A DNA stretch of 64,000 nt, from IMG/VR virus record IMGVR_UViG_3300045988_135160. One strand, 5' to 3'. A program made the position numbers and the translations under genes. Position 1 is the first letter of the stretch. Each line of letters starts with the position of its first letter. Below are positions 4,301-57,929 of the stretch, one piece after another. Below the pieces are notes generated by a model. That model saw nothing but the letters and a program-made list of their open reading frames with translations. It did no database searches and was not told the origin of the DNA. This DNA is from a virus.

Positions 4301-7300
4301 AGGCAGTCTATAATTGATAAATTATATACAGGAAATGCTGATCTTCTTACTGCAAGAGAAAAAGATGTGTATGATAAATACAAACAAGATTTTGATGATT
4401 ATGTATCGTCTTTGGGTGACAGTCCTGTTAATCTCATAAAATCATTATCTGAAAAGGCTGACAGGCTTACAAGTCCGAGATCAGTGTATGAGGAAAATAA
4501 AGCTATTATTGATATGGCTAAGTCTAATTTGGAACCAGATCAAAGGCAGGAACTTGATGATGCTATTTCTTCGTATGTTGATATAATGAACAGGCGGGAC
4601 AAAGGAGAGAAAGTTGACGAAGATAAACTTGCAGATTCGGTATTTACCATAGAAGATCTTGGCCGGGTTGGAAATATCACTGACCTCCTTCCTTATATCG
4701 AGCAAAACAGGATTATCGATAAAGGTCGTATCTCTGAATCTACGTTAAGTAATTTCGGGGAGGATGATGCTAATATAGATTCTCTTGTAAATGAGTTAGA
4801 CGAATCCGATAATACGCCGGGAGCTAACATAGATAGTGCCCAGAATCCAGAGACGTTGATGGTTAGAAGAATATCCAACGATGGCAACGAAAGGTATGAA
4901 ATTGCGGGTCTTAGAGCCGATAAATTTATATCTTCTATAAAATCATTGGTTCCTATTCAAATAAGCTCTGAAACGAACGCTAATGGCACTAAAAGGTATT
5001 CTCTTAACATAGGTGGGGAAACAGCTACTATAATTGAACTGCCTTATCATGCGAGATGGTCTATAGACAAAGAATCGGCTCGTGTTCTTAACCGTTACAC
5101 AGACGTGTCTATTCAGGACGTGGGTAATTCCTATTCTTTGGTTTATAAGCGTCTTGATTCAGATGAGTTGGTTCCGTACAGAACGGGTGTCGGATTCGGA
5201 GAGAATGAGGTAGATAAAATAGATCAGGAAGCATTATCTTCTTTGAAAAAAGGAGATAAGGTTAATCTCGAAATAGATGTAAATGATACTTATAATCAGT
5301 CTCTTTTTGCCGAATACAATGATGCTGTTCAGTCCGGCGATAAAAAAAGAATAGAATCTGCTGAGAATAAACTGGTGTCCAATATGGTTATCAAGGTCAT
5401 GAGTGGGAACAGATTCGTTTCTGTTGTAAAAGCTGATACAGGAGGCATAGATGGTATAAGTAAAATAAGAAGAACGGCTTTTAACAAGTGGAAGAAGGAC
5501 GCCGGCCGGTCGGCTACCATCGGCGTCGGCACGCATGTTGTTGCCCAGACCCTTCCCGGAAGACCGGTGTTTAACATGAAGGTGAACGGTCAAGGATATG
5601 GCCAGGTAGAAAATCTCCCTATTACCGAAAAAGGTGCTGAAAAAGTATCTGATGTCGGATATGTATTAAATGGCAAAGTCGTGCTTAAGAACGGATCTAA
5701 ATACACAGGCTTCCCATTTGCTTATTCTATATTAAATGACAAGGGGAATAATTACAAAAATGTAAGAGTTCCGGTAGTCGTCATCAAAGGTAAAAACGGT
5801 CTTAATTATCTTTTCCCAGTTAGCCTACGTTCTGTAGAATCAGAGGAAGGGCAGAAATGGATGTCTTTTATAGATATGCTGCTTGAATCTGGTGATTCTG
5901 AATTGCTACAGATGGGTCAAGATGATATACAAGATCTTAATGCGTATCTAACCAAGTTAGGTCTTGATCCGGCTTCGTATCAAGTATCGTATTTGAATCC
6001 TATTTCAGGTCTTAGAAAAGCTCGTGAGGCTATAGAAGAATTATCTACAGTTCCTGATGTTGTTAAGTGGGTAGAAGATGGAAGTAGGAGTGTGAAAGAC
6101 ATTGTGACGTCTGAAGTAGAATCTGGAATAGATTTCGAAGGTGAGATGTTTGTCGCTCCTAAGATCAGGATTCAGTTTGGTAAATCATCTTCCAGCCCTA
6201 AGTCGCTTATAGAGGATGATCTTCCTTTCTCTGATGAGGGTAAGACCGTTACTTCTAAAGAATACGTGGATGTTTATGAAGAGGAAATGCCAGAGGAAGG
6301 GACTATCCTGGGGACTCAGCCGGCGCCATTAGCTCAGCCGGCTCCTGCGGCACAAGCCGCGCAGTCTTTACCTGGCAAGAAGCGTACCTCCAGGAAAAAC
6401 TTCTCTCTTATGTTAAACGAAATAGAATCTCATATAGAAAAAGAAGGATTGCCGTCTTATGCTAATATTTTTGATTTTATAGCAAGGAAGATTGTAGGAG
6501 GTGATTTGAGGTTTCTTCGTGAGAGAGGTAATCCTAAAAGCCTTAAGGAAGAAATGGGATTAGAACCTAAAGGAACAGTAGGTGATAAAATATCCACTCC
6601 TTCTAAAAAGGGAGGTAAGACCTTAGAAGAATATGTTTCTTGGCTTCGTTCTCAAACAGATCAGGTGGTGGTTGATTATGTTGGTCCAAGATCTGACGAA
6701 CAAATTATATCAGAGTTGAAAAACTTTTTGAAATATATTAATTTTGTTCCAAGTAAGGCTTTAAATTATTCTCTTAGAGTCAATGGCATGGATACCCTAA
6801 AAGAATATGGCACAAAAGAGGAAGTAGAAAAAATGGAATCTGATATCAATAGTTTGGTTTCTAAAGTTTTGCCTACGGTGGATAATAAAACTGTAGAAGA
6901 TGTTTCTACTGCAATAAAATCAAACAACTTGCCTGCCATATGGAGGCCCGTGGAAAGCCTTGATATGACAAACGAGGAAAAAATAGAGTTTTTGAATAAC
7001 GTAGCAGATTTCCTTAGCGGCATACCAGAGTATGATGCTGTCGTGGAGTCTATAGAGTCAGAATCAGATAATATTTTAAATGATGGAAAAGAAGGAAGTG
7101 CAGAAGGCGGTGCAGTACGCGCTGAGGAAGATGGCGATAAAAAGGGAGATGGAGAAGGCAAAGGACAATCCAGAACAAATGTCGAAGTTAAAGGAAATGT
7201 CGAATTACCTGGATCTGAAGAAGGAAGAGTAGATAACTATAGGAAGAACGGAGATAAGTTCTCTGACATTGCTGAAGTTACTTTATGGCTACTTAGAAGG

Positions 7301-8008
7301 GCTGCCGGCATAACCTCTATCCCGGAAGGAGAAGAGGTTTATGTAGAGGGAGATGAGGTTAATAGTATTATGACCGATATGGAATCAAGGTATGGTATAG
7401 ACACCATCAATCACTCGCATACGACTAAGGCTATAAGGGATCTTAACGGCGTATCAGGTTATAAAGTAGAATACGGCTTAACCTTTTTAACATACGATCC
7501 TTTTATTAGAATATCCAATCCAAGGAAAGAATCTAAGGCCGAGAAAGACGAACCTCGTATATCCGAAGAACCGCTTACTCACATATCAAGGGTAACAACC
7601 CCTTATTTCCTGTACGGCGGCGATGAAGCATATACATCTGTTCCGGCTAAGGTAGAACCTATACCGGAGAAGATAATGGGTCGTAATGGCATTAAATTTG
7701 GTATGAGTGTAGTCGAGTTAACCAAATTAGGGTACAAAAAAGCTGGTGGAAACTGGATATATAAATTCTATATGAACTCAGGTGTGTATGATTTGTATAA
7801 TATCAGTACCGGTGAAGCGTTTAGGGCAAAACCGGATCTTGGAGTTAAGATAAGTTCCAGCGCATTCATCCGTTCTTTATCTCAATCTGGTAGAAAAATA
7901 CAAAATATGATGAGTAGCATGAGCCAGGAAGAGATAGATAGGAATAAGAATCTCGTAGAAGGTTCTGATAATTCGGATTCGATAAATGAGTTAAATAAGG
8001 AGTGTTGA
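1367..8008 (+). CDS. giant 2213-aa protein, probably a virion structural, tape-measure-like or ejection protein
   Basis: Uninterrupted 6.6-kb ORF. Gly-rich hydrophobic segment (GGLGVGSLGNIGAKLGGRIGAKLAARQAANRGIG) typical of tape-measure/internal virion proteins. Long coiled-coil stretches and low-complexity Pro/Ala and Asp/Gly patches. No polymerase DxDGD motif seen. Confidence 0.75.
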   Translation: MADNNIDRYNPAAKTTYEDVARQRKLAEEENYTPATLPETTTPLVPNYMPGEGVYAQPKFPDYASRIAAAEYEEPYIAKEISNSYSEALARNSYRGATPAPPPLNPYGPKVSIRESHQMGNDGVWRTKYSNYIPGINNEDYYARRQSGWSKFWNGVGKFALKSALYGAQGVVSLPDKLINMASEGSYKAALNTNMDKFVGDLDQQIDMLLPHYYKKEVEDYNFGQKLFKDTGNFLWNDVLGNGMSFTVGAMISAYMTGGLGVGSLGNIGAKLGGRIGAKLAARQAANRGIGSLKSVFNDYVRKGVATGRNVGEAAKTMTLLATSAGFESSVEANSFMKQSESDFKDYYRKIYGRDPNAEEMAVFRNSNADVGSAIFAANMGIVGLSNWLLFGKYIGLGGKAIPGLEKRLNKHLFGLGTEVAKPGEMAIKITNPNIGQKIAGNVFNIMKRPVSEGLWEEGSQGAVQNTAEEYVKSRYDNVAMNGAVDVLDAISEGFKKQYTSKEGWTEIGIGAIIGSLFGMREGFFGVKEYSNSQILLERQVNEYNKASSNLNTAALNTLKKSMSLGPQVRSDAQSMTGKELDDAMFEKMSIDNQMGTLEDSAENFRQMIDMMPISEIAEANGMSLEEAKKYKDSIIDNYNNRLSDFRSAQSFAEDLIGDDSKIEFRKYVARNAFLGLQSESRMKDIASVIETLSGQPRVADALSTFSRLSDRARERAMAIRGIRSRIEELESEIEDLATRPRNVEGKDPQAESIQRKTKELESLRTNYNNSLSELSTLIGKEFSIEELVSKTESVLSSPLSPISSQDVIEAYDTLVAFDDYFNVKSRQEKKFTAKDKAMRSLVNEYRRSLMDYRNMNNFLSKMLDKRFLAEENRGFSKALSSLWSTPYKGDDKVPDFAEPNKVGEYDTDEVVDQAVSEGKISEDEAWTIKAFMHALDKVREDRMKEAEDNIKESPLTESVSDEDYEAAMDNPIMVPVVRQSIIDKLYTGNADLLTAREKDVYDKYKQDFDDYVSSLGDSPVNLIKSLSEKADRLTSPRSVYEENKAIIDMAKSNLEPDQRQELDDAISSYVDIMNRRDKGEKVDEDKLADSVFTIEDLGRVGNITDLLPYIEQNRIIDKGRISESTLSNFGEDDANIDSLVNELDESDNTPGANIDSAQNPETLMVRRISNDGNERYEIAGLRADKFISSIKSLVPIQISSETNANGTKRYSLNIGGETATIIELPYHARWSIDKESARVLNRYTDVSIQDVGNSYSLVYKRLDSDELVPYRTGVGFGENEVDKIDQEALSSLKKGDKVNLEIDVNDTYNQSLFAEYNDAVQSGDKKRIESAENKLVSNMVIKVMSGNRFVSVVKADTGGIDGISKIRRTAFNKWKKDAGRSATIGVGTHVVAQTLPGRPVFNMKVNGQGYGQVENLPITEKGAEKVSDVGYVLNGKVVLKNGSKYTGFPFAYSILNDKGNNYKNVRVPVVVIKGKNGLNYLFPVSLRSVESEEGQKWMSFIDMLLESGDSELLQMGQDDIQDLNAYLTKLGLDPASYQVSYLNPISGLRKAREAIEELSTVPDVVKWVEDGSRSVKDIVTSEVESGIDFEGEMFVAPKIRIQFGKSSSSPKSLIEDDLPFSDEGKTVTSKEYVDVYEEEMPEEGTILGTQPAPLAQPAPAAQAAQSLPGKKRTSRKNFSLMLNEIESHIEKEGLPSYANIFDFIARKIVGGDLRFLRERGNPKSLKEEMGLEPKGTVGDKISTPSKKGGKTLEEYVSWLRSQTDQVVVDYVGPRSDEQIISELKNFLKYINFVPSKALNYSLRVNGMDTLKEYGTKEEVEKMESDINSLVSKVLPTVDNKTVEDVSTAIKSNNLPAIWRPVESLDMTNEEKIEFLNNVADFLSGIPEYDAVVESIESESDNILNDGKEGSAEGGAVRAEEDGDKKGDGEGKGQSRTNVEVKGNVELPGSEEGRVDNYRKNGDKFSDIAEVTLWLLRRAAGITSIPEGEEVYVEGDEVNSIMTDMESRYGIDTINHSHTTKAIRDLNGVSGYKVEYGLTFLTYDPFIRISNPRKESKAEKDEPRISEEPLTHISRVTTPYFLYGGDEAYTSVPAKVEPIPEKIMGRNGIKFGMSVVELTKLGYKKAGGNWIYKFYMNSGVYDLYNISTGEAFRAKPDLGVKISSSAFIRSLSQSGRKIQNMMSSMSQEEIDRNKNLVEGSDNSDSINELNKEC

Positions 8009-8088: not shown

Positions 8089-8112
8089 GGTGATTATATA
8101 CCACTTTACACC
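8089..8112. repeat. left 24-bp terminal inverted repeat / conserved 24-mer (reverse orientation)
   Basis: 23/24 match to the reverse complement of 9412-9435. The same 24-mer also occurs at 49288-49310 and 57552-57575. Confidence 0.7.
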
Positions 8113-8134
8113 AAAAGCGTAAAGTAATACATAT

Positions 8135-9358
8135 TTATACGGAAATCCGTACTGGGTTCCACCAAAACCCTCTACCTTCTGGTAACATCGTTACATCAAA
8201 GGATTCTTTTGCTGATTTTCTAATGATGTTAAAAGCACCATTGATATCAGCATTAATAGTCCTACCAAACGAGGTTTTAAACAATCCTCGTTTGGTCCTT
8301 CTTCCTTTGTAAGATTCATGTTTACAAATCCGTTCATTATCCAAAAAGCTACATTTTGAAGTATAAGATTCTTCAACAATCTTAACATTAATACCTTCTA
8401 ATGTTGCTTTATACGATATCATACTGATAAACGAATTAAAAGGAATAGATACAAAGTTCTGATTATTTCGTTTTCCGATATTGATCTCTTGTTTCCAGCA
8501 TTTGTTATGACCGATTATGATCGTATTAATACCATTGGAAACTACGTGATTAATCAATATCCTACTCGCTTTGTGAAGATAATCTTTGATCTTGTTATTT
8601 CTTTTGTTGGTTAATGACCTGATTTGTTTTGAAGTATGTTTATTATCTTTTAATTTAGATTTTAAGAATGCTAATCTTTTATTATAATATTGGTTGATAG
8701 ACTTTAGTGGTCTACCATTGATAATAAAACAAGAACCTGTGTTTGAAACACAAGAAGCTAAATTATCTAATCCTATGTCGATGCCAAGATAGTTCCCATT
8801 ATCGGACATAAGATCTTTTTCCTTCTTATTGTAAACTATTTCAAGAACAATATATCCATTCTTAGGAACGAATCTAAGTTGTTGAATATTTTGTTTATTG
8901 GTTCTTGTTGTAAAAGAAAACTGTTTTGGTAACTTAACAATACCTTGTTTTATCCATTTTTGAGAAAAAGCGATTGTTGTAAAAACAGCAGTAAACAAAC
9001 CATTTTTGTTAAGATACCCAGGCATTCTAACAAATTCAGAATACTCACCTCTATTCTTTTTATTTAAAAGATTGAAGAATGATCTAAAGTTTCTATCTAC
9101 CATCATCAACACTTGCTGAGCAACCGGTGTTGGTAAAGCACGATAGTCGACATCATTTTCTATTCTTAGTTTCTTTTCGAGAGAATAATAATTGAGATAT
9201 TTGTACTTTACAGTATTATCATCCTTGTATTGGAAATAGTGTTGTCTAACAACATACAATCCTTTGTTGTATAAGTTTTTACACTTATGCAATAGGTCTT
9301 GAAGCTCATTGTAATATATTGAACTTTGTTTGATTATATGTTGTTCAACTAATCTCAT
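8135..9358 (-). CDS. tnpB: TnpB (OrfB, IS605 family RNA-guided RuvC nuclease), copy 1
   Basis: RuvC-I LGIDIGLDNLA, RuvC-II VEESYTSKC, zinc finger CSFLDNERICKHESY, RuvC-III INADINGAFNI. Probable start is MRLVEQ (9358) rather than the track start 9397, by analogy with copy 2 (MRLVYKF). Confidence 0.85.
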   Translation of the reverse strand: MRLVEQHIIKQSSIYYNELQDLLHKCKNLYNKGLYVVRQHYFQYKDDNTVKYKYLNYYSLEKKLRIENDVDYRALPTPVAQQVLMMVDRNFRSFFNLLNKKNRGEYSEFVRMPGYLNKNGLFTAVFTTIAFSQKWIKQGIVKLPKQFSFTTRTNKQNIQQLRFVPKNGYIVLEIVYNKKEKDLMSDNGNYLGIDIGLDNLASCVSNTGSCFIINGRPLKSINQYYNKRLAFLKSKLKDNKHTSKQIRSLTNKRNNKIKDYLHKASRILINHVVSNGINTIIIGHNKCWKQEINIGKRNNQNFVSIPFNSFISMISYKATLEGINVKIVEESYTSKCSFLDNERICKHESYKGRRTKRGLFKTSFGRTINADINGAFNIIRKSAKESFDVTMLPEGRGFWWNPVRISV

Positions 9359-9411
9359 GACACAAATGTAGGAATTATTATTTATATAAAAAAACAATTT
9401 CTTATATTTGT

Positions 9412-9435
9412 GGTGTAAAGTTGTATATAATCACC
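9412..9435. repeat. right 24-bp terminal inverted repeat / conserved 24-mer GGTGTAAAGTTGTATATAATCACC
   Basis: Inverted partner of 8089-8112. Lies 14 nt upstream of the ATG at 9449. Confidence 0.7.
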
Positions 9436-11783: not shown

Positions 11784-11917
11784 ATATATGTACGTATATC
11801 AATAACATACAAGAAAAGTTAGATTTTCATTGTTTATGAATTATTTTTGTTAAGTTTGCAATATTAGTTTCAGGAAGGGATTATGGAAAGGTGATTATAT
11901 ACCAAAAATAAAACAAT

Positions 11918-24770: not shown

Positions 24771-26028
24771 TTATAAGTTTCCGGATATATTCATTTTGTA
24801 AAATACATTCGTAATCCTTACCGGGTTAAACAATAACCCTCTATCGATTATCCTACGAATTGATTCACAGGAATCACCGACTACTTTTCTCATAATGTTT
24901 AATGCTCCATTTATGTCTGCATTTATGAGTTTTCCTACCGAGGATTGAAACAATCCTCGGTTCTTCCTCTTTCCTAAATAGTTTTCATGTTTTCCTATCT
25001 TCTCAAATGCTAATGAATCACATTTTGAAGTATATGACTCTTCATGAATAACTATTTCAATACCAGCTAATTCACATTTATATTCTAAGTAACTCACCAA
25101 TCTCGCAAAAGGGATTTGTGTGAATTTCTGGTTATTCCTTTTTCCCATATTCACATTCTGTTTCCATCCCTTGTTATAGCCTACAACTAATTTTGTTATC
25201 TTAGAATCGACAAGCAAATCAACTATCTTTCTACTGATTTTATGAAAGACATCTTCTATGTACTGTTCCCTATCATAATATAATTTCTTTATTCGCTTTG
25301 TTATTCCTTTTATCTTTTGTAAATCCTTGATACTATTTAATTTAGCAAGTGTTTTATTAAATAATTGATTGTATGATTTAACAAATTTACCACTAAACAA
25401 AACAGTAAAATCCTCACTTACTAATGTTGCAAGATTATCAATCCCTAAATCGATTGAAGCAACTTTCTCTTCCCTACATTTAGATACTCCAGTATCTTTT
25501 ACCTCATAAATGATTTCTATTTTATATCCACACGCTAATGGTTTTATTCTAATCTGTTTGAAATCTTTTATCAAATCAGAATACTTTTCATATTGAGGAA
25601 TACTTATTGAAATATCTTTTGATAGGATTATTTTTCCATCTTTTATTTTGCAACTCTGATTCGTGTAATACAAATTAAATTCAGATCCTCTTTTTTCTAT
25701 AACTTGGAAGGCCTGGTTTTTCCCTATACTTATTATAATTTTTCTTGTAATCTTGGACCGATTTGTAGTAACCTTTAATGTTTTTATCAAGAATACGAAG
25801 AATTTGTTGTGAACATTGCGCCTTTAATAATTTGTAATTAATATCTCCATCCAAATTCTTGGTATTTTTCATGATAGCATCAAGTTCAAAATAGGACAAC
25901 CACTTATCTTCTTTAGAAAGTGTTTCTCTGAAAATATACAATGCCTGATTGTACAAGTTGTTGCTAATCTTGCATAAAGATGATATATTTTCATTTTGTC
26001 CTATGTTAAACTTATATACTAATCTCAT
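24771..26028 (-). pseudogene. tnpB: TnpB copy 2, disrupted by a frameshift (N-part 25681-26028, C-part 24771-25790)
   Basis: The two overlapping ORFs together align to TnpB-1. They share MRLVYKF, SIDLGIDNLA, EESYTSKC, CDSLAFEKIGKHENY and INADINGALNI. The frame switches within the run at 25691-25696. One extra base there would give a single roughly 430-aa ORF. Confidence 0.75.
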
Positions 26029-36298: not shown

Positions 36299-37558
36299 TT
36301 ATTCGTTATTATGTGTATTTGCTTTATATCCATATGATTGATCTACTTCAATAGAAGTCAATCCATGTCCTATATATTTTAATTTTTTATATGATATATT
36401 TTTCTCATTTTCCCCATCTATATCTTTTATTTTAAAACTACCAGAAAGTCTTCTTGCGTAAATAAATCGTTTTTCACCATAAAACATTACTTTATCAAAT
36501 AGTCTAAACCCAAATACCCTAAATGGTGATTGATTCATTCTTTTGATCCCTCCCTTTTGCATCTTCATTTTATGAATTTGCCTATTATGTCTCCGTGTGA
36601 GTTTCATCTTGAAATGATATCCAAGCCTTTTTGCTTTAAAATTCTCTGAGATAACAAATGCATCAGAAACATGGGACTTTTCGATTCTATGTTTTATCCG
36701 ATTATGTTTCGTTATATATCCAAATGTCATACTAACGTTTGGATATAATGACTTCAATTTATCGAATAACTTCCATTTCATGATTCCCATCGCGGCCGCA
36801 TCACGAAGTGAAGTTCCTCTTTTTACCTTCAATTTAATATTCCCCTTATGGTACTCCTTATGGCAAGTTTCACATAAAGTAATCAAATTAGAAGGTGAAT
36901 CTCCACCAGTCTTTCGCGATTCGATATGGTGGATATTAAGAATAGGATTTTTCGATTTTCCCTTACAATGCTGGCATTTGTGACCATCACGAAAAAGTAT
37001 GTATTCTCGAACATTCCAAAATCCAAGTTGCTCGCCTTGCTGGTATTCTTTTCCCAATATATCAGGATTCTTAATCTTTTGAGTATCAAACTGAGAAGTT
37101 TCTATAATTAATCTTGAAACAGGAAGGATAGAATGTATAAAACTGACAACCTTAATATGGGAATCAATTTTTTGACAAACAGATGGAGCTATCCATCCTT
37201 GGCGCTTCGACTTTATTCTGTTATTAAATCTCGGCTTTCTATACCTTATCCTATTCCTTCTCGCTTTCCTCAATTCTCTTCTTGTCGAAAGCAAATTAAT
37301 GATATCATTTCTCAGAATAACTTCACTTGCGTAAAGCTCCTTGCTTTTCGTCGTAGCTGATAGACCAACATGTTTAGTTCCAGCATCAACGCCTAACACA
37401 ATTTCCTGTTTGTAATCAGATGTGACGTACATTAATTTGATGGTAAACGGACATAAGTTGACAACAACTGCCTTTTTGTCTTTAAGCAGTCTTCTAACCT
37501 TACCATGCCTTGTTGTTGGCATCAAAGGTTTACCATCTATGTCTTGTACGTACACCAT
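36299..37558 (-). CDS. iscB: IscB RNA-guided nuclease (PLMP, split RuvC and HNH), copy 1
   Basis: N-terminal DGKPLMPTTRHGKVRRLLK (PLMP domain). RuvC-I LGVDAGTKHVGLSA. HNH CQHCKGKSKNPILNIHHIESRKTGGDSPSNLITLCETCHKEYH. RuvC-III SHVSDAFVI. Size of 419 aa is typical of IscB. Confidence 0.85.
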   Translation of the reverse strand: MVYVQDIDGKPLMPTTRHGKVRRLLKDKKAVVVNLCPFTIKLMYVTSDYKQEIVLGVDAGTKHVGLSATTKSKELYASEVILRNDIINLLSTRRELRKARRNRIRYRKPRFNNRIKSKRQGWIAPSVCQKIDSHIKVVSFIHSILPVSRLIIETSQFDTQKIKNPDILGKEYQQGEQLGFWNVREYILFRDGHKCQHCKGKSKNPILNIHHIESRKTGGDSPSNLITLCETCHKEYHKGNIKLKVKRGTSLRDAAAMGIMKWKLFDKLKSLYPNVSMTFGYITKHNRIKHRIEKSHVSDAFVISENFKAKRLGYHFKMKLTRRHNRQIHKMKMQKGGIKRMNQSPFRVFGFRLFDKVMFYGEKRFIYARRLSGSFKIKDIDGENEKNISYKKLKYIGHGLTSIEVDQSYGYKANTHNNE

Positions 37559-37810
37559 TTGTTACAAACTAATTTTTAATTAATAACTACTATTCGTAGT
37601 AAGTCAGATATATTTCAATCTGTTAGTACCCATCGCCAATGTTATTCAGAGGTTTCTTACAAGCAACACTGTATCCAAATACAAATACTGTTTAATCACC
37701 TGCCTTAGAGCCTGGAGCTTGGATAAACACTCCAGGGTAACTATACATTCTCCGATAACGTAGTGCTCGAAGCACTTAGGCTAATAACCGGCCAGTAAAA
37801 CTGGATATAC
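36377..37810 (-). mobile_element. non-autonomous IS200/IS605-like IscB element 1 (iscB plus upstream omega-RNA block; boundaries approximate)
   Basis: Similarity to copy 2 extends from about codon 394 (YKKLK) through the roughly 230-nt upstream conserved block, then stops. Confidence 0.45.
37559..37810 (-). ncRNA. putative IscB omega-RNA (guide at the 5' end, about 37791-37810)
   Basis: Non-coding block immediately 5' of iscB-1, conserved with the block 5' of iscB-2. Two hairpins show compensatory changes: CCTGGAG/CTCCAGG versus CTACGAA/TCCGTAG, and GTGCT/AGCAC versus GTGTT/AACAC. Confidence 0.55.
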
Positions 37811-37843
37811 AAAAAAGTAAAATTCTATTTGTCTTTTTGTATA

Positions 37844-38119
37844 TTATTTCGGAGATCTTGCATTTTTGTCACCTTTCGTATCCGACTTGGATCCCCTATT
37901 AGCTTTTACTGATTTATACCTAAGACCGTTCTTGGTATGAGAACAATCCTTGCCTTTCCTCCAGCCCTTGCCCTTCTTCTTGTCCGTTTCGTAGTTTTTA
38001 CGACCAAGCTCCCGGCGTTTGGCTTTCTGTTCCGGTCTGGCATTTATCTCCTTGTCCTTTTTAGCCTTTTTCTTCCTGGCTTCTGGATGAGTCCTGTAGT
38101 ACTCTGTTGATCTGCCCAT
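37844..38119 (-). CDS. highly basic Lys/Arg-rich small protein (91 aa)
   Basis: ORF with more than 35 percent K+R. Confidence 0.4.
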   Translation of the reverse strand: MGRSTEYYRTHPEARKKKAKKDKEINARPEQKAKRRELGRKNYETDKKKGKGWRKGKDCSHTKNGLRYKSVKANRGSKSDTKGDKNARSPK

Positions 38120-42340: not shown

Positions 42341-42827
42341 TCTTCTTCTCGCCTAATTTTTCAGCTCCCTTCTGAAGATCATATTTGAATACGTCAATGA
42401 TCTTCGTTTCAGCAATAGCTTCGCAATTCCAGTCGCCTAACGTGCCCTGCATGCCTTTAGTCAACACAGCTTCGGCATCCTTGGGATTGCCGGCCTGGAC
42501 ATACATATAGCATGGTGTTTTCTTTTCTTTACCTTTCTTTTCATCCAGTGTAATGTAATTCACCTTACACTTATACCAGTACTCAGCTTCTCCGTTGAAG
42601 AAGATTTCCGACACTTTAATAGGATTTATTTTAACAATGTCGAACACTTGAAATAAATCCTTGAAAATCTCTAAAGATCTTGATTCTGCCTCTGTATAAG
42701 ATAAGGCATCTACCAAATACTTTTCAGTTACCTTCTTTTTTTTGCCGTTCTCGATATTATCAATCTCGGCTTTTACTGTGATTTCAAACCAACGATTCAT
42801 GTCTATATTTTTATTCAAATTAATCAA
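42330..42827 (-). CDS. hypothetical protein (165 aa)
   Basis: ORF. Its start overlaps the iscB-2 stop. Confidence 0.45.
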   Translation of the reverse strand: MINLNKNIDMNRWFEITVKAEIDNIENGKKKKVTEKYLVDALSYTEAESRSLEIFKDLFQVFDIVKINPIKVSEIFFNGEAEYWYKCKVNYITLDEKKGKEKKTPCYMYVQAGNPKDAEAVLTKGMQGTLGDWNCEAIAETKIIDVFKYDLQKGAEKLGEKKSEE

Positions 42828-44050
42828 TCCATTTCCTTTTGTACCATAAAGCGTTTACACCTTGATAATTTCAATTTCTTGTATGTAATATCTCTTTGGT
42901 TTTTACCATCAATATCTCGAATATTAAAACTACCGGTTTTACGCCTTGCGAATATAAAATAATAACTGTTTTCAAACATAACCCTATCAAACAATCGGAA
43001 ACCAAAAACTTCAAAAGGAGATTGATTTGGTCTTTTTATCCCTCCTTTTGGAATCTTTTGTTTATGGATCTGACGATTATGTCTTCTTACTAATCTTACT
43101 TTATAATAATATCCTAACCTTATAGCATCAAAGTTTTTAGAAATAACAAATGCATCGAAAACATGAGATTTTTCAATACCATGTTTAATCCTATTGTATT
43201 TTGTAACATAACCGAAAGTCATAGAAACTCTGTTGTATTTAGACCTTAGTTCTTCATACAATCTCCATTTCATTATTCCCATTACGGCTGCGTCGCGAAG
43301 CGACGATCCCCGTTTGATCTTTAAATCTATATTACCTTTATGGTATTCTTTATGACAAGTTTCACATAAGGTAATAAGATTAGATGGGGAATCTCCACCT
43401 GTCTTTCGTGATTCAATATGATGAACATTCAATACTGGGTCTTTTGACTTTCCCTTACAATGCTGGCATTTATGTCCATCTCTTGCTAAAACATATTCCC
43501 TAACGTTCCAAAATCCAAGTTGATCACCCTCCTGATATTCTTTACCTGATATATTAGGATTGTTAATCTTTTGAGTATCAAATTGAGCTACTTCGATAAC
43601 AATACGAGATATTGGTAATATAGAACATACATTGTCAATAACACGAATATGGGCGTCTACTTTGTATTTCACCGAAGGTGCTACCCATCCCGGACGCTTA
43701 CTTTTTATTCTATTATCAAAACGAGGTTTTCTATATCTCAATCTATTTCGTCTTGATCTTCGTAGCTCCCTTCTGGTAGACAAAAGATCTACGATATCAT
43801 TTCTAAGGATAACTTCACTGCTGTAAAGTTCTTTGCTTTTCGTTGTAGCCGATAGACCAACATGTTTAGTACCAGCATCAACGCCTAACACAATTTCTTG
43901 TTTGTAATCAGATGTTACGTACATTAATTTGATGGTAAACGGACATAGGTTTACAACGATTGCCTTTTTGTCTTTAAGCAGTCTCCTAACCTTACCATGC
44001 CTTGTTGTAGGCATCATAGGTTTACCATTTATGTCTTGTACGTACACCAT
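42824..44050 (-). CDS. iscB: IscB RNA-guided nuclease, copy 2 (about 80 percent identical to copy 1)
   Basis: Same PLMP, RuvC and HNH motifs (MVYVQDINGKPMMPTTRHGKVRRLLK; CQHCKGKSKDPVLNVHHIESRKTGGDSPSNLITLCETCHKEYH). C-terminus diverges from copy 1 after YKKLK. Confidence 0.85.
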   Translation of the reverse strand: MVYVQDINGKPMMPTTRHGKVRRLLKDKKAIVVNLCPFTIKLMYVTSDYKQEIVLGVDAGTKHVGLSATTKSKELYSSEVILRNDIVDLLSTRRELRRSRRNRLRYRKPRFDNRIKSKRPGWVAPSVKYKVDAHIRVIDNVCSILPISRIVIEVAQFDTQKINNPNISGKEYQEGDQLGFWNVREYVLARDGHKCQHCKGKSKDPVLNVHHIESRKTGGDSPSNLITLCETCHKEYHKGNIDLKIKRGSSLRDAAVMGIMKWRLYEELRSKYNRVSMTFGYVTKYNRIKHGIEKSHVFDAFVISKNFDAIRLGYYYKVRLVRRHNRQIHKQKIPKGGIKRPNQSPFEVFGFRLFDRVMFENSYYFIFARRKTGSFNIRDIDGKNQRDITYKKLKLSRCKRFMVQKEMD

Positions 44051-44300
44051 ATCTACAAACGTTTTTAATGTTTATTCAACATAAGTCAGAGTGAAACTCT
44101 GTTAGTACCCATCGCCAATGTTATTTAAGGTTTTTTTTGTAAGCAACACTGTTCCTGAATACCAGAACTGTTTAATCACTTACCTTAGAGCTACGAACTT
44201 GGGCAAACATCCGTAGGTAACTATCTATTCTTAAATAACGTAGTGTTTGTTTCAACACTTAGGCTAATAATCGGAATAGCTTTTGGCTATTATGCATAAT
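42869..44300 (-). mobile_element. non-autonomous IS200/IS605-like IscB element 2 (boundaries approximate)
   Basis: Extent of nucleotide and protein similarity to element 1. Confidence 0.45.
44051..44300 (-). ncRNA. putative IscB omega-RNA, copy 2 (guide about 44281-44300)
   Basis: Conserved with 37559-37810. Compensatory stem changes support a structured RNA. Confidence 0.55.
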
Positions 44301-48191: not shown

Positions 48192-48992
48192 TTAGTTAGA
48201 TACAAATATACAAGTTTTACTAAGATACCCTTCTGTCATCTCTATAAAGTTCACACAATCTAATTTGCTTAACTTGTAAATCAATGCCGGATTGTGTACT
48301 ATGGCTATAATTTGTGTTTGTGGTTTATGGAATGACAATACATTATAAATTTGCATTATGTTGTCAATGTCAAGATTCCTATCTGGCTCATCCATGAGAA
48401 CCGTGTATTCAAAACTGCTTTCTGTTAATGTTATGCGGTTTCTTTCATAATACTTCAACAGGTTATCAATTCTTTTAATCCAAAACGCATTTGATTTTTT
48501 CTTGTATTCTACAAGATCTTGTATTGGAAACGTATAATCCTTTTGACCGAACATTAAATTGAAAAGTGATTCCAATGATAACACCACTTTCTCTCCATAA
48601 GATCTTCTAATATTATTCACATACAAATCTAAGTTGCTGATGTTTTTCAATACACTATCTCGATTCATCTCCGCCGATGGCAATAAACGGAATACTTTCC
48701 CTGCATAATCGGATGATATGTCAATCCCATCAAGAACCTTGTCATCATCATCATCAAATATAGGTGGAAAATCCAGTGCCTCGATCGGTATTTCAGAGCA
48801 CATGGATTTCTCACATAACGCATACATTGATATGATGTTAAGCAAAGTTGATTTTCCACTACCGTTTTTACCTACAATCACATTCACTCCTGGCTTGAAA
48901 ATAAATTCTCTACCATTTTCAAACGCTTCTATGTCAGAAACGTATTCAAAAGGAGTTTTTGTATTGTCTTTTATTTTTACTTTATATATCAT
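48192..48992 (-). CDS. P-loop ATPase (ABC/AAA_21-like)
   Basis: Walker A VGKNGSGKSTLL, Walker B/D-loop LMDEPDRNLD, H-loop IVHNP. Confidence 0.6.
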   Translation of the reverse strand: MIYKVKIKDNTKTPFEYVSDIEAFENGREFIFKPGVNVIVGKNGSGKSTLLNIISMYALCEKSMCSEIPIEALDFPPIFDDDDDKVLDGIDISSDYAGKVFRLLPSAEMNRDSVLKNISNLDLYVNNIRRSYGEKVVLSLESLFNLMFGQKDYTFPIQDLVEYKKKSNAFWIKRIDNLLKYYERNRITLTESSFEYTVLMDEPDRNLDIDNIMQIYNVLSFHKPQTQIIAIVHNPALIYKLSKLDCVNFIEMTEGYLSKTCIFVSN

Positions 48993-49287
48993 TTTATACT
49001 GGCTATGTTATAAAACATACGGATGTTATTTAATTTCATATTTTTCTTCTCTAACTTTGTTTTACTCAATCGAATCATATAGTCCCTTGTTTCGGACAAG
49101 ACGGTTGGGTAAAAGAGGTCTTTGATATAAGGTTTTACCCTAAAAAAATATTCGTTGGGTAAGTAAAATCAAAAACGTTTTGTTTAGTAAAAGAATCCGG
49201 TGATCTCACTTTCGAGCAACCGGTAGAGGGTATTGGTGATACCCAGTATGAAGTTTCATACAAATGTATATTGTTTTACGCTTTTTT

Positions 49288-49310
49288 GCGTAAAGTGGTG
49301 TATAATCACC
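49288..49310 (+). repeat. solo copy of the conserved 24-mer (GCGTAAAGTGGTGTATAATCACC) with an upstream hairpin
   Basis: Matches 9412-9435 and 57552-57575 at more than 20 of 24 positions. Preceded by TTTACGC-tttttt-GCGTAAA hairpin, as in the copy at 8084-8134. Confidence 0.6.
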
Positions 49311-49333
49311 TTGATGTTATCATTGTAATCCTT

Positions 49334-50314
49334 TTAAAAATCAATTACCGCCCGAACCATGTCTCCGATGTGCTTGTTGCCGGTGCCCGTGAGGCCACTG
49401 GAGAAGACCACGTACCACGCGACGGCCTGGCTGCTCTCAGTACTGGACCAATACCACGTCGAGGAGAGGGGAGATGCCGAAACATAAGTGAATGCTTTGT
49501 TTAGTTCGTCCATATAATGGGCCATTAAATTTAATTGACCAAGAGATGGTATATACTCGCCATCTTCCAGCAGATTTCTCAATTTTGGATTTCTGGCTAC
49601 AAGGCGTTCCGTATTGCCGCATCCGTCAATGTCAAACAGCGCATCACATTCACGTTCGTAATATGTCCCACTTCCGGATTCTTCACGGCTATCATCGTCA
49701 AGCAATTGTACGATATCATGCTCCGTCAGTGAGATTGCAAATGACATGTATCTGTGCTTCAACCCGATGTATCGTACACAATCTTTGGAGTTATCGCCGG
49801 TAAACGGCTCTGCATGTCCGTCTTCGTAGATTATATACAGTCCGTCAGTTGACTCTTTCTTATCCTCTTCGGATGGTACTCTGTTTTCACATGTACATTT
49901 CTCACTTTTGGATCTTACGATTATATTCAATTCATTTAATACATGATTCCTGATGACATTCTCGCACGCTCTTCTTATAAAATCATGATCTCTTTGTTTG
50001 AGTTCATCATTCACCATGCATCTGATCCAGTTTTCTATCTGGTTGTCACCTCCATATGTATTAACCATGTACCGTTTTACGTGTTTCTCCAATAACGGCT
50101 CTATGTTTTTGATTATATCTTCTTTGGTAAGGTGAAGTTCATTTAATATACAGTTCCTTACTGCCCTTAACGGACAATTTGACGAATTGTCTTCATATAC
50201 GATTTCTGCTCTATTTTGTCCTTTCTCTGTCACAATACGACCTGCTATTTCCCCTATGTTTATTTTTTTCGCCGTTTCTAAATCAAACGGAATTGTTGCT
50301 GTTCTCTGTTCCAT
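49334..50314 (-). CDS. hypothetical protein (326 aa), paralog of the downstream gene
   Basis: N-terminus MEQRTATIPFDLETAKKINIGEIAGRIV resembles MENPIIVPFDLNTARKIKSGEIEGSV of 50319-51062. Confidence 0.5.
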   Translation of the reverse strand: MEQRTATIPFDLETAKKINIGEIAGRIVTEKGQNRAEIVYEDNSSNCPLRAVRNCILNELHLTKEDIIKNIEPLLEKHVKRYMVNTYGGDNQIENWIRCMVNDELKQRDHDFIRRACENVIRNHVLNELNIIVRSKSEKCTCENRVPSEEDKKESTDGLYIIYEDGHAEPFTGDNSKDCVRYIGLKHRYMSFAISLTEHDIVQLLDDDSREESGSGTYYERECDALFDIDGCGNTERLVARNPKLRNLLEDGEYIPSLGQLNLMAHYMDELNKAFTYVSASPLSSTWYWSSTESSQAVAWYVVFSSGLTGTGNKHIGDMVRAVIDF

Positions 50315-56200: not shown

Positions 56201-56325
56201 AAGCTATTATTTTAGGTATATAATTACCTCATTAAATTTTTGAAGGTAGTTATATACAATATTATACCAACCATGTTGTAGAACATAAAGTAAAATAGTA
56301 TATATCTTATTTTAATCACGTAATT

Positions 56326-57558
56326 TTGTATCATAAAACTGATAAGGAAATGATTAAAGGTTACAAATATAGATTAGATCCTACACCGGAACAGATTGTC
56401 CAAATGGAGAAAACATTTGGATGTTGTAGGTATGTCTATAATTGGGCTCTTGATCTGAAAATTAAAACTTATCAGGGTGAAAAAAGATCTTTGTCAGCAG
56501 TTGATTTATGCAAGCAGCTAACATTACTCAAAAAAGATGAGAACCATCTTTGGCTAAATGAAGTATCTAATGAATGCTTGCAACAATCTATACGCTGTAT
56601 GGATAGTGCCTTCACCAAATTCTTTAGAGAACATACCGGATTTCCCAAATTCAAATCCAAACATAGGGATAAGAACGTTTTTAAGAATGTCAATTCTGTT
56701 AAGTTTGATTTTGAAAATAACAGAGTTAAGATTCCTATCATTGGTTGGGTAAAGTTTTTTGCCAATCGGTCCTTTGAAGGTGAGATTGGTACGATAACAA
56801 TATCTAAATCATCAACCGGTAAGTTTTATGCAAGTGTCTTAATAGATGACGGTATTCCTAATCCTGACAAATTTGCTATCAATTCCGATACAACAGTAGG
56901 AATTGATGTGGGAATTAAGGATTTCGCCGTCTTATCCAATGGGCAGGTTTTTAGTAATCCGAAGTATTTGGAATCTGTGCAGAAAAGATTAGGATGCTTG
57001 CAAAGAAGGTTTAGTCGCAAACATAAAGGAAGCAACCGATACAAGAAGGCAAAACATGATATTGCCGTTTGTCATGAACGGATTCGAAACCGTAGACAAG
57101 ATTTCTTACACAAGGTCAGTAAGAAGATAGTAAGTGAAAACCAAACTATTATCATCGAAGATCTTAATGTAGAAGGTATGTTGAAAAATCATTGCCTTGC
57201 TAAGGGTATTGCTTCTGCATCTTGGAGCGAGTTCTTCAGGATGCTGCAATATAAATCAGATTGGCGCGGTGTTAATTTAATTCGGATAGGTAGATTCGAG
57301 CCGAGTTCTAAGATGTGCGGATGTGGATACATACATCGTGATCTTAAGTTATCGGATCGAGTATGGACTTGTCCTGAATGTGGCGCCGTCAATGATCGTG
57401 ATTTACTTGCAGCGAATAACATTAAAAGATTTGGGTTAGAAAAGAAGAATCTTCTAACCCAAGAAAATATTAACAAGACACCGGTGGTGAACCGGGAGGG
57501 GGACGTGGAGTTGTCGGCGGTAGCCGGAGCTGTGAAGCGTCAAAATGTACTGGTGTAA
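56326..57558 (+). CDS. tnpB: TnpB (IS605 OrfB family), copy 3, from a different subfamily than copies 1 and 2
   Basis: N-terminal YRLDPTPEQ HTH. RuvC-I VGIDVGIKDFAVLSNG. RuvC-II IIIEDLNV. Zn finger CGCGYIHRDLKLSDRVWTCPECG. RuvC-III NDRDLLAANNI. Opposite strand to the surrounding genes. Confidence 0.85.
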   Translation: MYHKTDKEMIKGYKYRLDPTPEQIVQMEKTFGCCRYVYNWALDLKIKTYQGEKRSLSAVDLCKQLTLLKKDENHLWLNEVSNECLQQSIRCMDSAFTKFFREHTGFPKFKSKHRDKNVFKNVNSVKFDFENNRVKIPIIGWVKFFANRSFEGEIGTITISKSSTGKFYASVLIDDGIPNPDKFAINSDTTVGIDVGIKDFAVLSNGQVFSNPKYLESVQKRLGCLQRRFSRKHKGSNRYKKAKHDIAVCHERIRNRRQDFLHKVSKKIVSENQTIIIEDLNVEGMLKNHCLAKGIASASWSEFFRMLQYKSDWRGVNLIRIGRFEPSSKMCGCGYIHRDLKLSDRVWTCPECGAVNDRDLLAANNIKRFGLEKKNLLTQENINKTPVVNREGDVELSAVAGAVKRQNVLV

Positions 57559-57929
57559 ACTGGTATATAATCACCTTCTCTTATATCTTTATATTCTTCT
57601 GGTCGTTTTCTGTTACCGTCTTTTATATAATTTACCCACAGTCTATCTTCTATGCTCTTAATCGCATTCTCTATAGTAAATTCGTCGCTGACACACATTA
57701 AACACGAAGACCCTGTTTTCTTATGTGGTTTATATACCCTTGAAAAAGACCACATTTTTATCCTGTCGTATATATATCCGTTGTTTGGATAAACGAATCC
57801 TATCCGGCTGTCACCTTCTTTGGCATAAAATACACCTGGCTCCTTCCCGCCCTTTCTATATACTACGAATCCTTTTTCTTTTAGGATCTTAACCACTTTA
57901 TTTAATTTATTTTCTACGTTCATTTTCAT
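57540..57929 (-). CDS. hypothetical protein (129 aa); C-terminus encoded by the 24-mer
   Basis: ORF. The last codons (GDYIPVYTSTF) read through the reverse complement of the 24-mer and overlap the tnpB-3 3' end. Confidence 0.45.
   Translation of the reverse strand: MKMNVENKLNKVVKILKEKGFVVYRKGGKEPGVFYAKEGDSRIGFVYPNNGYIYDRIKMWSFSRVYKPHKKTGSSCLMCVSDEFTIENAIKSIEDRLWVNYIKDGNRKRPEEYKDIREGDYIPVYTSTF
57552..57575 (+). repeat. conserved 24-mer GGTGTAAACTGGTATATAATCACC overlapping the tnpB-3 stop codon
   Basis: Near-identical to 9412-9435 and to the reverse complement of 8089-8112. A partial direct copy, GGTATATAATTACCTC, lies at 56215-56230 upstream of tnpB-3. Confidence 0.65.

Follow-up and report, generated by a model that had tools for sequence, protein, structure and literature searches.

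The 64,000-nucleotide viral sequence IMGVR_UViG_3300045988_135160 from IMG/VR (hereafter the window, meaning the whole stretch analysed) is 90%–95% identical to csAssE-Sib, an epsilon crAss-like phage, and contains a 341-bp gap at positions 48993-49333 that is flanked by two minus-strand open reading frames (ORFs), 48192-48992 and 49334-50314. Motif search confirmed that a 24-mer, GCGTAAAGTGGTGTATAATCACC, is present in this gap at 49288-49310 on the plus strand; a preliminary description of the window had singled it out as a solo copy of a motif otherwise found beside tnpB genes. The palindromic sequence TTTACGC-tttttt-GCGTAAA reported with it is indeed there (49276-49295), preceding and overlapping the 24-mer, as are its counterpart CTTTAC-gcttttggt-GTAAAG at the TnpB-1 copy (minus strand of 8089-8134) and the partial copy GGTGATTATATACC at 11890-11903. 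The gap also lacks an adjacent TnpB, tblastn with the window's TnpB proteins giving no match near 49290. The 24-mer is very probably the terminal inverted repeat (TIR) at the right end of a fossil miniature inverted-repeat transposable element (MITE) of 329 bp at 48982-49310, a non-autonomous member of the IS1595 family that carries a predicted TnpB-type guide-RNA gene.

Two parts of the preliminary description need revision. The intergenic setting stands, but "solo" does not, as a degenerate left inverted repeat was found at 48982-49002; because of this repeat, the whole intergenic region can be read as one element. The conserved module of roughly 35 nt proposed earlier is, moreover, too short: similarity to the 3′ end of TnpB-1 extends over about 127 nt, with 49186-49311 being 75.6% identical to 8213-8088. 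The 21-nt core of the motif, with up to 3 mismatches, occurs in 4 window copies against 0.01 expected by chance, and the outer 14-mer, with up to 1 mismatch, occurs in 6 against 0.03 expected (Table 1). The tnpB-1 and tnpB-2 genes both end at a copy of the 24-mer, and an inverted copy lies just 5′ of the start of tnpB-1, placing that gene between 24-bp inverted repeats. In csAssE-Sib, the solo region is nearly unchanged, and both TnpB elements are missing from the positions they occupy in the window; at the right end of TnpB-2, csAssE-Sib homology restarts straight after ATCACCT, and the 24-mer is not there in csAssE-Sib. The paper describing csAssE-Sib mentions two TnpB genes only. Two isolated 14-nt TIR tips in the window adjoin no element sequence and may be footprints or remnants of lost elements.

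Table 1. Positions of the fossil MITE, its parts, and related features (window coordinates unless a locus is named; RE and LE, right and left end).
Feature	Position	Strand	Details
Left target-site duplication copy, 8 bp, TTTTTACT	48974-48981	+	Empty-site comparison; L216
Eroded left TIR, TTATATATCATTTTATACTGG; canonical GGTTATTATATACTATTTTACACC	48982-49002	+	Alignment with intact MITE copies
Candidate -7 promoter box, TAACTTTG (TAnnTTTG)	49052-49059	+	Position kept across MITEs; putative function
omegaRNA-like scaffold, ~245 nt, 5′ end predicted	49064-49310	+	RNAalifold; single-sequence fold agrees
TnpB-1 3′ (omegaRNA)-homologous part, 140 nt	49171-49310	+	127-nt similarity, joint alignment, covariance model
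Terminal hairpin, 17-bp stem	49266-49305	+	5′ arm 49266-49282, loop 49283-49288, 3′ arm 49289-49305
Right TIR, 24-mer TGCGTAAAGTGGTGTATAATCACC, intact	49287-49310	+	Motif searches, alignment
Flank in omegaRNA guide position	49311-49330	+	T49311 is the sole remnant of the right duplication
AAA/ABC-type ATPase gene	48192-48992	-	Pfam AAA_21, SMC_N; empty-site comparison
21-nt core copies	8089-8109 (-), 9415-9435 (+), 49290-49310 (+), 57555-57575 (+)		
Isolated TIR-tip fragment, 14 nt	11890-11903	-	Match to outer 14 nt only
Isolated TIR-tip fragment, 14 nt, 1 mismatch	56215-56228	+	17 nt outside TnpB-2 left end
TnpB-1 element, 1347 bp	8089-9435	-	RE TIR 8089-8112, LE TIR 9412-9435
tnpB-1 gene	8135-9397	-	Pfam OrfB_IS605 + Cas12f1-like TNB
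TnpB-2 element	56245-57575	+	Degenerate left TIR 56245-56269, right TIR 57552-57575
tnpB-2 gene	56326-57558	+	Pfam OrfB_IS605 + Cas12f1-like TNB
Other miniature derivatives	L064 5924-5974; L120; L042 1853-2124; L013 13394-13845; L316		

The insertion itself is documented by comparison of the ATPase locus among relatives. Of 80 such loci fetched, approximately 70 carry an empty site reading ...ttatttttac|tgatgttatcattgtaatcc..., at which the ATPase gene starts ATG ATA ACA TCA GTA AAA, and the insertion point is codon 4 of this gene. The preliminary description had held that absence from related phages would argue against a conserved regulatory element; this absence holds in most of the loci compared, albeit as a reflection of mobility and not of chance. 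Since empty sites lack the 24-mer, it arrives with the element. At locus L216, an identical insertion is flanked on both sides by TTTTTACT, whereas in the window the element lies between tttttact and tgatg: the right junction is atcacc|tttttactgatg in L216 and atcacc|ttgatg in the window, whose lineage has lost 6 nt (ttttac) of the right duplication by deletion. No credible ORF is found inside the window copy in the ORF list.

All copies at the ATPase site also have a damaged left TIR, from which the outer 5 nt are gone and in which 4 substitutions have accumulated. One of these substitutions created the start codon that the ATPase gene now uses, an ATG at 48990-48992 (minus strand) within the left TIR remnant. 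The first four codons were rebuilt after the insertion: the window gene begins ATG ATA TAT AAA GTA AAA, of which ATG ATA TAT AA derives from the TIR remnant according to the empty-site comparison, and its product begins MIYK-VKIK, compared with MITS-VKIK at empty sites. The ATPase gene therefore appears to have been rescued by a new start codon supplied by the decayed transposon end. The window copy cannot move because its left TIR tip is lost, and its guide register is shifted because 6 nt of the right duplication are lost; it is most likely a retained relic, the RNA of which may or may not still be made. Two further loci (L126 and L176) possess the window's left flank and eroded left TIR together with a right flank from a different MITE site, which suggests homologous recombination between MITE copies, reshuffling modules of the phage genomes. 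A 17/20 match to the would-be guide was also seen inside the ATPase gene (48568-48587, minus strand; approximately 0 expected by chance); as a guide target, however, it lacks the A|T context of real target sites, and it is probably a coincidence.

The same unit recurs at many other sites. A scan of IMG/VR for the 21-mer returned at least 119 stretches, all in large gut-phage contigs. Among the matches listed, the motif occurs at 33 TnpB-1 3′ ends, inverted at 48 TnpB-1 5′ ends, at 18 TnpB-2 3′ ends, and at both ends of a 2.8-3.5 kb element, in addition to a solo-like class of 13, none with a TnpB within 1.7 kb. When copies of this class from different sites are aligned, homology ends upstream at GG(T/C)(T/G)ATTATATACTATTTTACACC, the inverted partner of the 24-mer. 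Intact MITE ends read GGTTATTATATACTATTTTACACC ... GGTGTAAAGTGGTATATAATCACC, and these ends also bound the 2.8-3.5 kb element, which encodes a transposase. A census based on an internal 20-mer (75 IMG/VR stretches, plus the window) yielded 77 MITE copies of 323-337 bp. Their flank pairs number at least 23, and in 11 of these pairs the 8-bp duplications are perfect. The internal sequence is constant across sites, while the flanks are different at every one.

The left subterminal region of the MITE (e.g., in L128) shares ATGTTGTAAAACATA with the left end of TnpB-2 (L035; window 56245-56328). With a TnpB-2-like left end and a TnpB-1-like right part, the MITE looks chimeric. Other miniature derivatives were encountered, namely, a 51-bp unit of two back-to-back TIRs and TnpB-1 elements with large internal deletions (272-452 bp: 272 in L042, 431 in L316, and 452 in L013), some of them with perfect duplications. 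When bacterial and archaeal genomes were scanned, the MITE-internal 23-mer was not found, and the TIR gave 3 matches only, which assigned no host. An uncultured Flavobacterium metagenome-assembled genome (L268) carries the TIR at 5787-5807 and an IS1595-like transposase at 7445-7999, 1.6 kb apart, and this transposase is 56% identical to the phage-borne IS1595 transposase; this hints at a Bacteroidota origin of the transposon family.

Members of the IS1595 family are characterised by inverted repeats, 8-bp duplications, and a DDE_Tnp_IS1595 transposase. A 307-aa protein encoded by the 2.8-3.5 kb element has a match to PF12762 (DDE_Tnp_IS1595; E = 2.9e-42) and a weak one to the PF12760 zinc ribbon; its ORF is found at loci L022 (4290-5213), L036, L004, and L071. 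At L071, the 8-bp duplication on either side of the transposase element is perfect, and exact 8-bp direct repeats were likewise observed around TnpB-1 elements (1347 bp), TnpB-2 elements (1320-1344 bp), and solo-like copies. In all, 26 distinct TnpB-1, TnpB-2, or MITE insertions with perfect 8-bp duplications were collected, 9 of them MITEs. To judge from these sequences, one TIR set bounds four kinds of element (a transposase element, two unrelated TnpB elements, and a MITE), and the group apparently circulates in epsilon crAss-like gut phages. The tip GGTGATTAT presumably resembles the end of the ISNwi1 group in ISfinder.

TnpB-1 and TnpB-2 are approximately 23% identical, and over a fragment only (tblastn). 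A PDB sequence search with TnpB-1 gave no match at E ≤ 0.001, and the TnpB identity hence rests on Pfam. Some features of the two window elements deserve mention in their own right. TnpB-1 is flanked by ATAGGTGA and AAAGTTAA, which show no matching 8-bp duplication; the segment 8024-9448 stands in place of a 192-aa ORF of csAssE-Sib, and the TnpB-1 element of locus L032 was inserted at a distance of 15 nt and faces the other way. This stretch, downstream of the 2213-aa gene, looks like a hot spot of insertion and rearrangement. At TnpB-2, the minus-strand ORF 57540-57929 runs into the right end of the element (57540-57576), and the transposon, TIR included, consequently supplies its last ~11 codons and stop; the csAssE-Sib homologue ends in native sequence.

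Between its TIRs, the MITE appears to encode a structured RNA. RNAalifold applied to 40 MITE variants predicted 51 pairs, in which 99.7% of cells are paired, compared with 36%–45% when partners are slid; within this MITE-only alignment, 5 pairs are changed on both sides. A joint alignment was then made in which 19 MITE variants and 32 TnpB-1 ends were represented by their last 140 nt. It contains 5 shared helices with 96.7% of cells pairing (37%–50% slid), and 8 pairs are changed on both sides (0-4 slid). The covariation score is 0.322, as opposed to at most 0.098 for slid and 0.205 for shuffled alignments, with none of 500 shuffles (0/500) scoring as high. G·U accounts for 21% of paired cells, and the opposite strand would pair in 76.9% only; these figures assign the structure to the TnpB-sense strand, at the solo locus the plus strand, antisense to the neighbouring genes. 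The terminal helix is kept across variants via G·U to G-C or A-U changes.

In the predicted fold, the hairpin of the preliminary description is the terminal stem of the RNA, and the inner TIR is its 3′ arm; the 3′ region of TnpB-2 likewise ends in a hairpin in which the TIR is the 3′ arm. Because the inner half of the TIR forms this last arm, the 24-mer would have two roles, as the DNA end bound by the transposase and as the end of the RNA scaffold. The placement of an omegaRNA, running from the tnpB 3′ end to the transposon end and then into variable flank, is found at both TnpB-1 and TnpB-2. The joint alignment was used to build a covariance model, whose highest scores in the window are 163 bits, for the TnpB-1 end, and 143 bits, for the solo copy. 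Weaker matches follow at the 3′ end of a third TnpB (24783-24907, 26 bits) and, with 19 bits, at the end of TnpB-2; no other orphan copy was detected in the window. Rfam at gathering thresholds assigned no family to the MITE and gave only two HEARO matches elsewhere in the window, and a permissive Rfam search of 48950-49350 yielded nothing beyond miRNA and snoRNA matches at chance level. Upstream of the first helix, at constant spacing, lies a TAnnTTTG box, which we take to be the Bacteroides -7 promoter consensus. Of 65 distinct MITE sequences, 63 have it 7 nt 5′ of CAATCGAATC, nn occurring in four variants, and similar boxes are found 5′ of both tnpB genes.

The preliminary description had offered a phage promoter as one explanation of the motif. 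That the 24-mer is an extended -10 element (TGGTATATAAT) of a phage or host promoter, firing outward into the flank, is very unlikely, even though TATAAT is present, outward promoters are known in IS ends in general, and two of the six window copies do lie upstream of a same-strand gene (9415-9435, 14 nt before ORF 9449, and 56215-56228, before TnpB-2). The solo, TnpB-1 right-end, and TnpB-2 right-end copies point instead into the 3′ ends of opposite-strand genes. When 162 distinct ends were read outward, 51 faced the start of a same-strand ORF and 57 entered an opposite-strand ORF; orientation is unrelated to gene direction, the very condition under which the preliminary description would have argued against a promoter, and the copies are inverted pairs at element ends. 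A promoter scan made no call and found no -35 partner at 49290-49310. The motif also travels with the elements and is not found in empty sites, and the likely hosts, Bacteroidota, use TAnnTTTG, a box that the elements themselves carry.

IS200/IS605 transposons have asymmetric ends and insert without target duplication. The 24-bp inverted repeats, the 8-bp duplications, and the DDE transposase partner seen here make it highly improbable that the solo copy is a palindrome-associated transposable element (PATE) or a right-end IS200/IS605 remnant, mobilised in single-stranded DNA form by a Y1 TnpA through recognition of the subterminal hairpin. Such a hairpin is present, tnpB is typically an IS200/IS605 gene, and PATEs encoding omegaRNAs have been described (PMC10055086); however, the pairing of the hairpin is kept via wobbles on one strand, which fits RNA and not DNA, and no Y1 transposase turned up in the loci examined, albeit no systematic search for one was made. 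The earlier suggestion of a remnant or miniature element end thus survives as regards MITE-like elements, given a ~330-bp element at many sites with 8-bp duplications, but not as regards PATEs, given the inverted repeats and the DDE partner.

A local deletion remnant, in which a full TnpB-1-type element lost tnpB in place, would account for the resemblance of the 3′ 127 nt to the TnpB-1 end, and internally deleted TnpB-1 derivatives do exist elsewhere (e.g., L013, L042, and L316). This origin is nevertheless scarcely credible. The ~330-bp unit has a constant internal sequence at no fewer than 23 sites (at least), with duplications of its own, which places any such deletion once and before the spread; furthermore, the left end of the MITE is like that of TnpB-2 and unlike that of TnpB-1. 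The idea that the 24-mer is native phage sequence favoured by TnpB elements as an insertion target, also among the candidates of the preliminary description and in keeping with the position of the motif beside both TnpB genes of the window, can virtually be dismissed: the 8-bp duplications lie outside the 24-mers, so that the repeats belong to the mobile unit, empty sites in relatives (the TnpB-2 end site in csAssE-Sib and about 70 of the 80 ATPase loci) lack the 24-mer, and the sequences beside it are different at every site.

When the 26 validated insertions were oriented by RNA direction, the upstream side showed T at -3 in 21, A/T at -2 in 25, and A at -1 in 25; position 1 of the duplication was T in all 26 and position 2 was A/T in 25. 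No mirror signal was seen at the opposite boundary among these 26 insertions. The motif at insertions of RNA-bearing elements is a strict, one-sided TWA|T. Immediately beyond the RNA-side end, 99 of 101 distinct flanks begin with T, compared with 16 of 27 flanks at TnpB-1 left ends and with 10 of 18 and 6 of 7 at the two ends of the transposase element (Fisher p ~1e-5, computed on an earlier count of 68/70). Since the TIRs are nearly identical, they should not by themselves fix the orientation of an element at an asymmetric target, and the bias fits selection through the target-adjacent motif (TAM) of TnpB.

A mechanism can be proposed on this basis. The IS1595 transposase would move the MITE in trans, and the MITE RNA would be made and loaded, also in trans, by TnpB-1 as the candidate protein source. 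Flanking DNA after ATCACC would occupy the TnpB guide position, such that each new insertion would gain a guide against its own empty site, and cutting of empty alleles in co-infecting phages could then copy the element across (homing). The window copy landed in ATPase codon 4 and afterwards lost the left TIR tip and 6 nt of the right duplication. The full scenario, that the IS1595 family recruited TnpB twice, with the TIR as the last guide-RNA hairpin, that it spun off a guide-only MITE homing via TnpB in trans, and that TWA|T, observed in RNA-bearing elements only, is the footprint of TAM-dependent drive, is put forward tentatively, as a possibility less probable than its negation.

Several considerations weigh against this scenario or parts of it. 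No IS1595 transposase gene lies within the 64-kb window. TWA|T could stem from a preference of the transposase and not from the TnpB TAM; the transposase element provides 18 distinct flanks at one end, 7 at the other, and a single validated duplication, a sample too small for a choice between the two. Two TnpBs with ~23% identity over a fragment would need one common TAM. The MITE variants are only ~11% divergent, and because the haplotypes are few and the split between MITE and TnpB-1 supplies much of the signal, there are few independent covariation events. The existence of the RNA, the position of its 5′ end, and the use that TnpB-1 would make of it are predicted from sequence. The MITE and TnpB-1 occur together in at least about 9 contigs, plus the window, among the matches listed. 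Finally, with its eroded left TIR and the 6-nt deletion at the guide junction, the window copy may do nothing.

Further OMEGA-type modules lie elsewhere in the window. Two IscB genes (Pfam RRXRR + HNH) are located on the minus strand at 36299-37847 and 42824-44293, neither with a 24-mer copy, and are preceded by the HEARO/omegaRNA Rfam matches at 37622-37847 and 44101-44293. A third TnpB (24771-26028, minus strand), 40% identical to TnpB-1 and without a TIR, is split into the overlapping ORFs 24771-25790 and 25681-26028 and may be frameshifted. Together with TnpB-1, TnpB-2, and the MITE, this amounts to six OMEGA-type modules (two IscB, three TnpB, and the MITE).

On the other side of the gap, the 3′ end of the minus-strand ORF 49334-50314 (49334-49480) has G+C-rich last ~100 nt and a weak Lcl_C match. 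It is highly variable among relatives with 95% identity elsewhere, with lone variable positions between invariant ones, and in this it resembles the variable region of a diversity-generating retroelement; a matching template repeat was looked for in the window and not found.

These findings bear on the annotation of abundant gut viruses, for which it matters that a recurrent motif in epsilon crAss-like phages corresponds to transposon ends and not to regulatory signals. They would also provide a compact natural case of one 24-bp sequence that serves a DDE transposase and a TnpB guide RNA alike, and of a guide-RNA-only MITE that apparently spreads with two proteins borrowed in trans. Should TWA|T be a TAM footprint, it would constitute population-level evidence that RNA-guided homing shapes cut-and-paste transposons beyond IS200/IS605. 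The ATPase gene, for its part, would exemplify repair after a hit, with a start codon taken from a decayed transposon end.

Some members of the IS1595 family reportedly carry passenger genes. The elements described here resemble that family in their ~300-aa DDE_Tnp_IS1595 transposase with an N-terminal zinc ribbon, in their TIRs and 8-bp duplications, and in the passenger genes of autonomous copies. To our knowledge, TnpB or omegaRNA has not been reported as IS1595 cargo, nor have phage-borne IS1595 MITEs, and literature searches found no earlier account of an IS1595-borne TnpB or of the MITE.

TnpBs associated with DDE transposases and inverted terminal repeats, as well as solo TnpBs mobilised in trans, were described by Altae-Tran et al. 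2023 (PMC10691335). As in those systems, the TnpBs here lie within symmetric-ended transposons, with their 3′ ends less than 250 bp from the transposon end and a flank usable as guide, and, as with the solo TnpBs, these ends are common to transposase-encoding copies. For one branch, IS630 is named in the main text of that paper, where IS1595 goes unmentioned. The present elements differ in their IS1595/ISXO2-like partner, in their crAss-like phage hosts, in the use of one TIR by two unrelated TnpB families, and in the derivative free of protein genes. Fanzor, the eukaryotic homologue of TnpB, is also found inside DDE-type TIR transposons (Bao and Jurka 2013, PMC3627910), and thus a TnpB-family RNA-guided nuclease is again a passenger in cut-and-paste TIR transposons; Fanzor elements are, however, eukaryotic or from giant viruses and belong to other transposon superfamilies, and no membership is claimed.

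PATEs of the IS200/IS605 group encode omegaRNAs on which TnpB acts in trans (Meers et al. 2023, PMC10055086). The MITE resembles them in being miniature and ORF-free and in keeping the transposon ends and the omegaRNA, and like them it would need both transposase and TnpB from elsewhere. Whereas PATEs have asymmetric hairpin ends and are moved as single-stranded DNA by a Y1 TnpA without duplication, the MITE possesses 24-bp inverted repeats, 8-bp duplications, and a DDE partner.

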